A DNA stretch of 64,000 nt, taken from the NCBI GenBank assembly GCA_963703095.1, contig OY969787.1:2625510-2689509 (forward strand). The letters are read 5' to 3'. Under the pieces are notes generated by a model, which saw only the letters and a program-made list of their open reading frames with translations, was not told where the DNA came from and made no database searches. This stretch comes from an uncultured Actinomycetes bacterium. GTDB lineage: Bacteria > Actinomycetota > Thermoleophilia > Gaiellales > Gaiellaceae. Made by a program: the position numbers and the translations under genes. Positions 4,739-24,826 of the stretch are shown one piece after another (the first letter of the stretch is position 1; every line of letters begins with the position of its first letter).

Positions 4739-5079
4739 TCGGCGCGCTGCGCGAGGAAGGGCGTGGCGAGCCGCTTCGGCGCCTTCAGCACCCACGCGTC
4801 CTCGACGAGCTCCTGCACGAGGCGGGGGTCGGCCTGCGGCAGCGCGACGAGCACCATCGGCCAGGCCTCGTAGTGCGGCGTGACGAAGAGCATGCCGGGG
4901 TGCGCGTCGATCAGCAGTGGTCGCTCCTCGAGATCGCAGCGTATCGCGAGCGTCTCGCCGTCCTCCCGCAGCCGTCCCATGAACGCCCCTCGAACCCGGA
5001 GTGCGGGCGTTCCGTACGCCGTTCCGATCTCGACCGCCGGCAGCTCGAGCGCGATCCGGACGACGTCGTCCCAGGTCAT
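4735..5079 (-). CDS. MmcQ/YjbR family small DNA-binding protein
   Basis: This 114-aa ORF ([37 protein letters not shown]...) resembles the YjbR/MmcQ family. It is tightly packed between lepA and hemW. Confidence 0.7.
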
Positions 5080-5086
5080 CGGCGGA

Positions 5087-6878
<1,792 letters not shown>

Positions 6879-7304
6879 GGCGAGTCGCGGAGGATCGTAG
6901 CCGTGGCGCGGTTTTCCCTGGATCTGGGCGTTTCGGGGTCGGGTGCGTTCCGGCTGCTGGCGCTGTACGGGCCGCGGCCTCGTGTCCGCGCGACGTCCCG
7001 GTGAGGGCTCGCGTGGGCGCGGTGCCGGGCGCGCCCGCAGAACCGGCGGGACGGCACCTCGGCGCGCGATCCTCGCGGGGTGGGTCGTGGCGACCCGCCA
7101 CGGGAGCCGCAGGCGCCGATGCGACCGGCCCGTGGGCGATCCCGGCGCCGTGGAGATCGGCACGGGTGAGTGCCCACCATCAGGCTTCGGCCCCCCGGAG
7201 GCGGCTGACGGTGTCGATGCAGTCGAGCGCCTGCGTGGCGAGAGAGCTTCGGGTGTGGGCAGGCTCCGTCCTGGGTAGATTGCGTCGAGGAGGTGATTTC
7301 TCTC

Positions 7305-7787
7305 ATGACGGACCGTCCCGTGGTGCTCTGCGTCGACGGATCGCGTGGCTCGCTCGAGGCGATCGGTGCGGCGGCCTCGCTTCTGGCGGGGCGCCGAGCG
7401 ATCGTCCTCAACGTGGTCGAGTCGCTCTCGCCGGCTGTGTTCATGGGGGCGGAGGGTGATGCGACAGCACCACCGTCCGGCGATGTCGCCCTGCACGTGC
7501 CGTCGGTCGAGGCGGCGAAGCGCCTTGTCCAGGTTGCCGTCGAGGCGGCGCAGCTCGCCGGCTTCGACGCGTTGCCGATCGTCGATGTCACGCCTGGGCG
7601 GACGTCGCGTCGAATCGTCGAGATCGCCGAGGAGCATGACGCGGAGGTGATCGTGGTGGGGGCGCGCGGGCGCTCATCGCTCGCGTCGATCCTGCTCGGG
7701 AGCGTGTCGCACGAGGTCGTGCAGCATGCCGGTCGTCCCGTGCTCGTGGTGCATGGCAGCGGCGCACGGACAGCGGGTGGGGCGTGA
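7305..7787 (+). CDS. universal stress protein (UspA family)
   Basis: The sequence shows PVVLCVDGS...[46 protein letters not shown], a USP ATP-binding type motif. GGAGG lies upstream. An alternative GTG start is at 7293. Confidence 0.85.
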
Positions 7788-22908: not shown

Positions 22909-23391
22909 TCATGCCTCCACCGGCAGCGCGCCGACGAGCTCGATGCCATACTCCTGCGCGGCCGCGTGGATGCGCGCCCCCTCGATGGGCGTCGGCGGCG
23001 GTCCGCCGTCGACACCCGCCGGGAGCGAGATCGCCCGGTAGAAGTCGCCGAGGTGAGGCGTGGTGAGGATGAGGTAGCGCGCGGCCTCCGACGCGATCCG
23101 GAAGCCGTGCACCTCCCCGGCCGGCACGTGCACGAACGAGCCCGCGCCGACCGTCACGCCGGCCTCGTGCCCGAGGAAGAACGTCACCTCGCCGTCGAGC
23201 ACGTAGAAGGACTCCACGTCGGCTGCGTGGCGGTGCAGCGGCACGGTCTCGCCCTTGACGGCCCGCTCGTCGACGAGCGCGAACGCACCGCCCGTCAGCG
23301 CGCCGGTCGCGAGGAAGGAGGTCGACGTGTCCCCCATCCAGCGGAGCTCGGCCTCACCGGCCCGGTAGACGTACGCATTCGTCTTGCTCAC
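22909..23391 (-). CDS. cupin domain protein
   Basis: It has cupin motifs (PLHRHAADVESFYVLDGEVTF...GSFVHVPAGEVHGF). The GTG at 23391 is preceded by GGAGAGAGGAG and forms a GTGA overlap with the TetR stop. Confidence 0.8.
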   Translation of the reverse strand: MSKTNAYVYRAGEAELRWMGDTSTSFLATGALTGGAFALVDERAVKGETVPLHRHAADVESFYVLDGEVTFFLGHEAGVTVGAGSFVHVPAGEVHGFRIASEAARYLILTTPHLGDFYRAISLPAGVDGGPPPTPIEGARIHAAAQEYGIELVGALPVEA

Positions 23392-24035
23392 GATCCCGAC
23401 TCCTCTCTCCCTGACCGCCTCGTCGACGTCGGTCGACGAGCGGCGGGTGCTCCGACATGGCCTGCCACCATCTCCGCCACCTCGCGTGCAGCCCACACCG
23501 GGGTGACGCCTCTCGTGCGCAGCGCCAGGTAGGTACGCGCACCGAACAGCGCGCACACGACCTCGAGCCGGCGCGGACCGATCCGGTGCCCGCGCAGCGC
23601 CGTCCGGACGATGGTCGTGACCGTCGCCCGGAGGTAGGCCTCCCACTCCTGCATCTCCGGGAGCTCCCGCTCGCGCGGATCGCTCTCCAGAGCGGCTCAC
23701 GCCCGGTCGTAGAACGAGAACAGCGCTGTCGCCGCCCGCTCGAGCCGGTCGACAGGATCGCTCGCGTCCCCGACCGCCGCCGCCGCGTCGTCGGGCGAGG
23801 GCGGCTGCGTCCGCTCGAACAGCAGCTCCCCGCACGCCGGCACGAGCTCGGCGAGCGTCGGGAAGTGCCTGTAGACCGTGCCGACGGACACATCCGCGCG
23901 ACGTGCGATCTCCTGCCAGCTCGTCCCGAAGATCCCCTTCTCCGTGTGGAGCTGGAGCGTCGCCTCGAGGCTGCGGCGCCGTGTCTCCTCGGCCGCCGCG
24001 CTCCGCGTGTTCATGTCGTACTCGCGAGGAGTCAC
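23388..24035 (-). pseudogene. TetR/AcrR family regulator interrupted by an in-frame TGA (23697-23699)
   Basis: The N-terminal HTH reads LQLHTEKGIFGTSWQEIARRADVSVGTVYRHFPT. The C-terminal ligand domain (..ELPEMQEWEAYLRATVTTIVRTALRGH..) is in the same frame, separated only by a TGA (..FSFYDRA*AALESD..). The start may be ATG 24014 instead of GTG 24035. Confidence 0.75.
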
Positions 24036-24112: not shown

Positions 24113-24826
24113 TCAGGCCAGCTGCCAGAACGGCCCGACGAGGCCCAGCCCGTCGAGGATCGCCTGGCTCTGCTCGCGCGGGCGCGGACGCCAGTCCGCC
24201 GAGAGTCGGTCGCCCCACCACGCATGTGCCAGCGCCGCCAGTGCCGTGACGCCGATCGTGGCGCCACCCTGTCGACCTCCGAGCCACCGCTCGACGTGCT
24301 CCTCCGACCGGAAGAGGTTCATCGTGCTTCAGGTGAAGACGATGTCGTCCCACCACCGCGCGGCGGGGACGAGGCAGTGGAAGACCGGTGTGTCGTCGCT
24401 CGGGCGCTCATCGCGCACCTCGATCTCGAGGGGCTCCCCGCAGTCGGGGCAGACCGCCTCGATCCGTCCGTCGACGTGCAGGGCGGCGCAGATCCCGAAC
24501 GCGTCCCAGGCGCAGTTCGCGAACCACCAGCGCCCGGACGCGCGCACCCGGTACGCCGTCGGGACGGCAGAGAAGGGATTCGCCATCCGGAGCTCGTCCG
24601 TCGCAGCGTTGAGGACGAGCGCGTGCGCCTCGTGCAGCCGGTGCCAGCCGCTCGTGACCTCCGGCTCGCCGAGGTCGAGCTCTGCAGCGACGTCGTGCGG
24701 CGTCGGTGCGCGCCCGAGCTCGACGAAGAGGCGGTACGTCGTCGCCCGGAGCACGAGATCCCGCTGGTCCACGAGAACACCGTCCCAGATCGCCGAGCGT
24801 CGGTCAATCCGGGCTGCCGACGGCAT
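24113..24826 (-). CDS. alkylmercury lyase (MerB)-family protein with an in-frame UGA at 24329-24331 (possible selenocysteine, or disrupted gene)
   Basis: Two same-frame ORFs join to give ...WFANCAWDAFGI...ARWWDDIVFT[UGA]STMNLFRSEEHVERW... NCAWD resembles the MerB Cys96/Asp99 motif. The UGA aligns with the MerB Cys159/Cys160 pair. See findings. Confidence 0.7.
24299..24316 (-). promoter_or_regulatory. SECIS-like hairpin downstream of the MerB-like UGA
   Basis: The mRNA is UGA + 12 nt + CUCUUCC-GGUC-GGAGGAG. The stem is 7 bp with one G.U pair, and the tetraloop is GGUC. Confidence 0.35.

Follow-up and report, generated by a model that had tools for sequence, protein, structure and literature searches.

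An in-frame UGA at the position of a metal-binding cysteine in a MerB-like gene of Gaiellaceae points to an unrecognised family of candidate selenoproteins

Does the in-frame TGA that interrupts a MerB-like gene of an uncultured Gaiellaceae bacterium terminate the protein, or does it encode selenocysteine (Sec)? The gene lies on the minus strand of a 64-kb stretch of contig OY969787.1 (GenBank assembly GCA_963703095.1, positions 2,625,510 to 2,689,509), which is the DNA examined here and is called the window. An earlier note, made from the letters of this DNA, had described two minus-strand open reading frames (ORFs) that share one frame and are split only by a TGA, and had proposed that their joined product is a MerB-like selenoprotein. 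The comparative analysis supports this interpretation, on the basis of a conserved UGA, of homologues with Cys in its place, of a downstream frame that is coding and of a hairpin linked to the UGA. We consider it very likely that the gene encodes a polypeptide of the MerB superfamily with a UGA-encoded Sec at the equivalent of MerB Cys159.

The minus-strand frame 24826..24113 holds a single in-frame TGA, at 24331..24329, which is followed by AGC ACG ATG, and the coordinates that the earlier note had given for both ORFs are correct. The joined product also reads as it had proposed, ...RWWFANCAWDAFGICAAL...ARWWDDIVFT before the UGA and STMNLFRSEEHVERWL... after it. Residue numbers are counted from ATG 24826 unless stated otherwise; from this ATG the frame has 237 codons, of which the UGA is codon 166. 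The Pfam MerB family (PF03243) matches residues 85-204 of the bridged product (profile positions 1-125 of 126, E 1.8e-26), with a score of 93 bits against a gathering cut-off of 27. Since the match lies on both sides of the TGA, homology continues across the stop. The N-terminal part shows a weak match of helix-turn-helix type, to Sigma70_r3 (E 1.6e-4). The true stop codon, at 24113..24115 (minus strand), is also a TGA and shows no hairpin after it. What happens at codon 166 must therefore be set by its local context, and we rejected a use of UGA as a general sense codon in these organisms, which is untenable in a gene that itself ends at TGA.

As regards the extent of the gene, the frame 24826..24113 stood, and the ATG at 24826 as start did not. 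A GTG at 24772 is more likely, because most homologues begin at the equivalent V/M (the majority of gene calls begin at the GTG or ATG of VD(E/Q)RDL) and one orthologous locus, L061, has an in-frame stop three codons upstream. With this start, the MerB-like coding sequence occupies 24113..24772 (minus strand) and contains 219 codons, the UGA being codon 148. The stretch 24773..24826 (minus strand), which would be an N-terminal extension if translation began at the ATG, is unlikely to be one, with the L061 stop in the equivalent stretch, and is probably a ribosome-binding region rather than coding sequence.

Alignment of the family profile with solved MerB chains places Cys105 on MerB Cys96, Asp108 on Asp99 and the UGA column on Cys159. 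Cys105 (codon TGC, 24512..24514, minus strand) is invariant within the motif NCAWD, and Asp108 (codon GAC, 24503..24505, minus strand), the equivalent of the MerB proton donor, is invariant in the close family. The earlier note had matched NCAWD to Cys96/Asp99 and the UGA to the pair Cys159/Cys160; the profile alignment agrees and assigns the UGA (24329..24331, minus strand), the proposed Sec codon, to Cys159 of the pair. In the C160S mutant MerB chain, the residue aligned to this column is the C of "fCS". Because the UGA column aligns with Cys159, the UGA is predicted to replace one of the two metal-binding cysteines.

Among PDB entries, MerB2 (5C17) matched best in sequence, with an E-value of 1.1e-8 for the single sequence and 5e-24 for the family profile. 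For the Cys-containing orthologue P0001, an AlphaFold2 model was of modest quality (predicted local distance difference test, pLDDT, of 65), with low confidence around the active site; all its 11 significant PDB matches were MerB or MerB2 (E 4e-8 to 7e-6, template-modelling scores of 0.51-0.65). The window protein resembles MerB (R831b/Tn21 type, PDB 3F0P/1S6L) and MerB2 of Bacillus megaterium (5C17), which are of the same Pfam family, fold and catalytic layout. It differs from MerB in the proposed Sec in place of Cys159, in a Ser in place of Cys160, in an additional conserved C-x-x-C (Cys126, Cys129) and in His150-Cys151, and sequence identity is about 18-20%. Its scores against the NCBIfam MerB equivalogs NF033555 and NF009710 were 27.2 and 30.1 bits, far below the cut-offs of 200 and 193, respectively.

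To what extent is the UGA shared by relatives? A search of 5.8 billion proteins, of which the best 120 matches were examined, showed 116 homologues that terminate at ...WWDDIVFT, one residue before the UGA column, and four that read through, all with Cys in this column. At the DNA level, one genome per GTDB species was scanned and relatives were found in 458 species. Among the best 80 of these loci, nearly all from metagenome-assembled genomes (MAGs) of Thermoleophilia (Gaiellales and Solirubrobacterales) and Acidimicrobiia, 79 show TGA in the UGA column and one (L043) shows TGT. A syntenic sister contig, L088, with 86-92% nucleotide identity, retains both the TGA and the hairpin described below. 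The TGA was also present in seven of seven divergent members, down to about 40% identity, which had been picked on protein similarity alone. Furthermore, an exhaustive search of 1.84 billion cluster representatives (50% identity) found that at least 68 of the nearest 150, which are 38-48% identical, stop at the same place (...WYDDLVFT, ...WWENVVFT, ...FWDNIVYT), and that 14 of these 150 read through with Cys in the UGA column. Full-length read-through forms with Cys include P0001-P0003 and L043. Homologues are thus contiguous across the site with Cys in its column, and sister species keep the TGA; these were among the comparisons by which the earlier note had proposed to judge its own reading.

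Some individual sequences depart from this pattern. Two full-length relatives, P0131 and P0137, show Trp in the Sec/Cys column, which could reflect a real TGG codon or, alternatively, a TGA that the source pipeline read with genetic code 4, and a third, P0133, shows Ala there and is also devoid of the first Cys. In a Solirubrobacteraceae MAG (L070, about 7640-7665), an additional stop is found six codons before the Sec codon, so that the sequence reads QQW, stop, EDIVFT and then the Sec codon; this extra stop occupies the second Trp of the conserved WW and is probably an error or a recent pseudogene.

The frame after the TGA is open, and among the 79 TGA forms, 59 have a frame of exactly 71 codons here. 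In the codon alignment of orthologues, entropies at the three codon positions were 0.55/0.44/1.16 downstream of the UGA, compared with 0.54/0.45/1.18 upstream. The 71 codons after the UGA evolve as coding sequence and are selected as strongly as those before it.

The earlier note had also reported a hairpin that starts 12 nucleotides after the UGA, CUCUUCC-GGUC-GGAGGAG (24299..24316, minus strand), and its seven base pairs, one of them G.U, were confirmed. The GGUC loop starts 19 nucleotides after the UGA, and the minimum-free-energy fold of the 48 nucleotides that follow the UGA includes this hairpin (-17.7 kcal/mol). It forms the apical part of a predicted element similar to a selenocysteine insertion sequence (SECIS), located at 24289..24327 (minus strand), which is completed by an internal loop and a lower stem (CGAUG/CGUCG plus GC/GC). 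The likeness to the E. coli fdhF element, which the earlier note had pointed out, was borne out: both hairpins lie in coding sequence just after the UGA and have a GGUC apical loop, which starts 18 nucleotides after UGA-140 in fdhF of E. coli K-12 and 19 in the window gene. The stem sequences differ, however, and a bulged U is not evident in the window hairpin, a putative SelB site.

Across 78 distinct orthologous sequences, the hairpin positions are paired in 99.1% of alignment cells, and each change retains the pair. Synonymous choice within the hairpin is almost frozen among UGA forms (Leu CTC in 77 of 78, Arg CGG in 79 of 79, Ser TCG in 79 of 79), whereas invariant Leu, Arg and Ser columns elsewhere show codon entropies of 1.3-2.2 bits. 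Over the 13 codons after the UGA, third-position entropy is 0.49, against 1.16-1.18 elsewhere. The sole hairpin site that varies freely is a GAA/GAG codon (42 versus 36), which pairs with U in both states, and two Glu-to-Gly replacements preserve the pairing while the protein residue is sacrificed. All seven divergent UGA forms show the hairpin core at identical spacing. One of them, L096, has CUCCUCC/GGAGGAG, with a compensatory C-G where others show U-A or U-G. The hairpin is identical in genomes of 42-46% GC at 42-44% protein identity, and two divergent forms lie on contigs of 42% GC, where CGG and TCG would be expected to be rare codons. In the Cys forms L043, L085, L086 and L087, the peptide MNLFRSE-H recurs unchanged or almost unchanged, written in other codons (AAC CTG TTT CGC TCC GAG GAG in L086), and none of the four has the hairpin. 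In total, it is found in 86 of 86 UGA forms and in 0 of 4 Cys forms. The hairpin is under constraint at the RNA level and occurs only together with the UGA: it is kept in every UGA-bearing orthologue, as the reading of the earlier note required, and lost in the Cys forms.

Synonymous variation is also suppressed just before the UGA, at 24332-24349 of the window (minus strand; alignment codons 141-145), where GAC is found in 78 of 78, ATC in 77 of 79 and TTC in 75 of 78 sequences. An influence of codon context on Sec insertion is one possible reason, and a contribution of these codons to a structure is another.

These observations suggest a mechanism in which, when the ribosome reaches the UGA, the hairpin 12 nucleotides downstream would recruit SelB-GTP-Sec-tRNA(Sec), Sec would be inserted, and translation would continue for 71 codons to the TGA stop at 24113-24115. 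If Sec were not inserted, the product would have 147 residues and no active site. As in MerB, Cys105 and Sec166 would hold the metal of an organometallic substrate, and Asp108 would protonate the carbon, so that the carbon-metal bond is cleaved. From the conserved catalytic triad we propose that the enzyme, like MerB, most likely cleaves a carbon-metal bond by protonolysis, the metal being held by Sec and Cys. The insertion of Sec and the physiological role of the protein are inferences, as is its substrate, which would be organomercury or a different organometal.

Several results weigh against a Sec codon, or against a lyase that uses Sec on mercury. The support for Sec insertion is at sequence level. 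Taken alone, the window hairpin is within chance (z = -1.9, with 9 of 200 shuffles folding equally well), and its significance comes from the comparative data and not from a single GC-rich sequence. Formal covariation statistics were not significant, and the observed structure did not stand out from shuffles, as a nearly invariant hairpin offers hardly any changes to count; RNAalifold gave no double-change pairs among 79 close orthologues. The lower helix is 85% paired across orthologues and shows double changes at two pairs, which is weak support. Rfam gave no relevant family, and none for SECIS, either in the whole window at gathering scores or in 24200-24400 at E-values up to 10. Furthermore, neither the 64-kb window nor 1.9 Mb of DNA flanking related loci showed a selA, selB, selD or tRNA-Sec. 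When E. coli SelA, SelB and SelD were compared by tblastn with the window and with all loci, the matches were weak and confined to GTPase domains, the one in the window being lepA, and the tRNA search showed no tRNA in the window. Finally, the Hg-Se bond is very strong. Product release from a Sec lyase could therefore be slow and the substrate may not be mercury, so that another organometal(loid), or a role in binding or sensing, is possible.

The tRNA search also returned ARAGORN calls of 91-95 nucleotides (Cys-GCA and Gly) in related loci, at L052 15677-15771, L042 207-298 and L048 1644-1734. They were rejected as false positives because they have no Rfam support and are located in GC-rich coding sequence.

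Three contigs that carry the MerB-like gene hold further genes in which a TGA interrupts the frame at a position known for Sec. Two show a gene of the deiodinase family (PF00837, E 5e-29) with the motif GSFT-U-PPF (L008 4088-5179 and L018 2754-3455, both on the minus strand), in which a 7-bp hairpin, CGUCGCC-GGUCG-GGCGACG, begins 9 nucleotides after the UGA. The third shows an AhpC/TSA-like gene with the motif SYT-U-PLT (L003 19040-20170, minus strand). Deiodinase-like proteins are an accepted family of prokaryotic selenoproteins (PMC13188914), and these UGA-containing genes on carrier contigs would lend indirect support to Sec. A literature search on the use of Sec in Thermoleophilia or Gaiella, and on merB in those groups, gave nothing useful.

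Could the UGA be something other than a Sec codon? The earlier note had allowed for a TGC/TGT-to-TGA nonsense change or a base-call error, and had pointed to other lesions in the window, which are real: a TGA in the adjacent TetR gene and a frameshifted lepA, both described below. A lesion at codon 166, a pseudogene included, is nevertheless ruled out by the comparative data, since the TGA is present in 79 of 80 species, in L088 and in divergent members of as little as about 40% identity, the frame that follows it is unbroken and selected, and an artefact is implausible across independent projects and sequencing platforms; its probability is practically nil. The note's other alternative was a split gene. 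On this reading the ribosome would terminate at the UGA and begin again at the ATG two codons later, and the two polypeptides would assemble. That ATG is present as stated, in the window and in all 79 close orthologues, and gene callers give a separate ORF of 69 residues. However, the same Met is found in the fused Cys forms (C-T-T-M-N-L-F), hence it is a protein residue, and a split would remove the catalytic residue itself and offer no account of the hairpin or of why it goes only with the UGA. The decisive evidence comes from divergent UGA forms that have no start codon there, in which the peptide continues in frame (U-KTILLF, U-ANILLF, U-GTINFF, U-STIRFF), and we reject the split gene as very unlikely.

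Two further explanations concern what the ribosome does at the UGA. Termination might be dominant, the functional product being the 147 residues that contain a winged-helix-like domain and part of the core, with the downstream ORF as a separate small gene. Hundreds of 147-residue database entries and the weak N-terminal Sigma70_r3 match agree with this, but the entries come from gene callers and say nothing about a product, the MerB domain extends across the stop, the Cys forms are fused, and the 71 downstream codons are selected as strongly as those upstream, which makes this explanation extremely improbable. Alternatively, near-cognate or suppressor decoding might insert one of the standard residues Cys, Trp or Gly at the UGA, with the hairpin as a read-through stimulator. 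We allow this a small probability, in view of the Sec machinery not found in the window and related flanks and of the Trp in the UGA column of P0131 and P0137. Against it, the column alternates with Cys, which is a hallmark of Sec, the loop and spacing of the hairpin match the SelB-binding element of E. coli fdhF, known selenoprotein genes with similar GGUC-loop hairpins occur on carrier contigs, and the stop of the gene is itself a UGA. Decoding as Sec is therefore the reading that we prefer.

Is such a Sec without precedent? The earlier note knew of no described case of Sec in place of a mercury-binding Cys, a statement that is out of date, since SaoL, a published MerB homologue, has a Sec aligned to MerB Cys159 (Haft and Gwadz, bioRxiv 10.1101/2022.07.06.499078; J Bacteriol 2023; see also PMC13188914). 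The window protein and SaoL share the MerB superfamily, a UGA-encoded Sec (proposed in the former) at the Cys159 column and the equivalents of Cys96 and Asp99; SaoL, too, was routinely truncated at the UGA in databases, with roughly 50-70 residues missing. The window gene is, however, not saoL: it fails the SaoL model, has T-U instead of C-U, lacks the SAO locus and belongs to other lineages. Against the SaoL model NF040728 it scored 45.1 bits, over residues 49-141 only, with a cut-off of 140. Its motif is F-T-U-S (T/S/N-U in the family) and not the CU of SaoL, and the nine-gene SAO neighbourhood of SaoL was not found around window-type loci. Carriers of the window type are mostly soil Thermoleophilia and Acidimicrobiia, whereas SaoL is found in strict anaerobes (Clostridia, spirochaetes and Deltaproteobacteria), and the window-type family matched 458 GTDB species compared with 52 reported SAO loci.

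SaoL is the sole MerB relative in the 2022 and 2026 catalogues of prokaryotic selenoproteins (PMC9312934, PMC13188914), and NCBIfam release 20.0 has no model for the window-type family. The family is new relative to these two catalogues and NCBIfam 20.0, while Sec at MerB Cys159 was already known from SaoL. For a "MerB-like" entry, review tables cite the GOS paper and Peng et al. 2016; MerB is absent from the main text of both. Selenoproteins of mercury methylation (HgcA/HgcB) and others that handle metals are similar in that their Sec is expected to contact a heavy metal (PMC13188914), but they belong to unrelated folds and families and show a CU motif.

A metagenome scan with the pattern TGA-N12-CTCTTCCGGTCGGARGAG matched at least 120 contigs. 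All 120 matches listed continue with the same ...LFRSEE(H/D)...W motif; 82 of them fit the window-type upstream pattern and 38 do not. Most of these 38 are more distant subfamilies of the MerB family, whose tested representatives match PF03243 with E-values of 1e-15 to 1e-20 and are not SaoL. Among the same 120 listed matches, 31 show a second in-frame TGA 64-65 codons upstream, exactly in the Cys96 column (...QKWFGQ-U-GFESLAV...). This second UGA has its own hairpin, with GCUGGC, a 5-nucleotide loop that is often GGUCA or GGUCU, and GCUGGC. The double-UGA loci are L107, L125, L129, L142, L155 and 26 others (metagenome loci L098-L217), in which the downstream site reads YA-U-STMNLFRSEEH; they show Glu in the Asp99 column, and the sister forms L131, L136, L143 and L111 show Cys at the first UGA site. 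L120, L126 and L204 encode fusions in which the double-UGA MerB-like domain is followed, at the C-terminus, by the catalytic domain of a class III adenylate/guanylate cyclase (PF00211, E 9.6e-13), a domain combination that hints at a sensing role for some family members. The double-UGA and cyclase-fused forms suggest a family both larger and odder than one would conclude from the window gene. We put forward tentatively, at a confidence slightly short of even, that the window gene belongs to a large unrecognised superfamily of MerB-like selenoproteins outside SAO, abundant in aerobic soil Actinomycetota, present in low-GC lineages too, and including two-Sec and cyclase-fused forms.

The MerB-like gene stands alone. 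In the window and in the sister contig L088, its neighbours are a divergent epimerase gene, genes encoding a TetR regulator, a cupin and a NUDIX protein, lysA and housekeeping genes. There is no mer operon, and merA, merR, merT and merP are not adjacent. Neither is the neighbourhood conserved: the largest common neighbour cluster occurs in at most 12 of 84 loci, and the neighbours of the other loci are unrelated. A scan for promoters and terminators found nothing.

Two other genes of the window show disrupted frames. The TetR gene, directly downstream (23391-24014, minus strand), has an in-frame TGA at 23697-23699, between FYDRA and AALESDP. Since L088 shows a Gly codon at this site and an intact TetR of 192 residues, this TGA is a genuine nonsense lesion or an error and not a Sec codon. 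The lepA (EF4) gene (5076-7637, minus strand) is frameshifted, its N-terminal GTPase part lying in one frame and its C-terminal part, 5087-5671, in another, which could be an indel error or a pseudogene.

With respect to annotation, hundreds of 147-residue entries named "organomercurial lyase" or "alkylmercury lyase family protein" would be truncated candidate selenoproteins without their active site. A 2026 review states that selenoproteins are rarely retained by aerobic bacteria (PMC13188914); the Sec enzyme proposed here is encoded at 79 of the 80 closest species loci, mainly in Gaiellales, Solirubrobacterales and Acidimicrobiia, which are common soil groups. Screens for merB that need Cys159 or a full-length protein would miss the family, which bears on estimates of methylmercury degradation in soil, and if members of the superfamily cleave or sense organometal(loid)s, a large part of the capacity of soils for demethylation or sensing has escaped surveys that insist on Cys159. 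The replacement of a mercury-binding Cys by Sec, and of both in some relatives, would offer a natural test of selenium in the cleavage of carbon-metal bonds and in product release.

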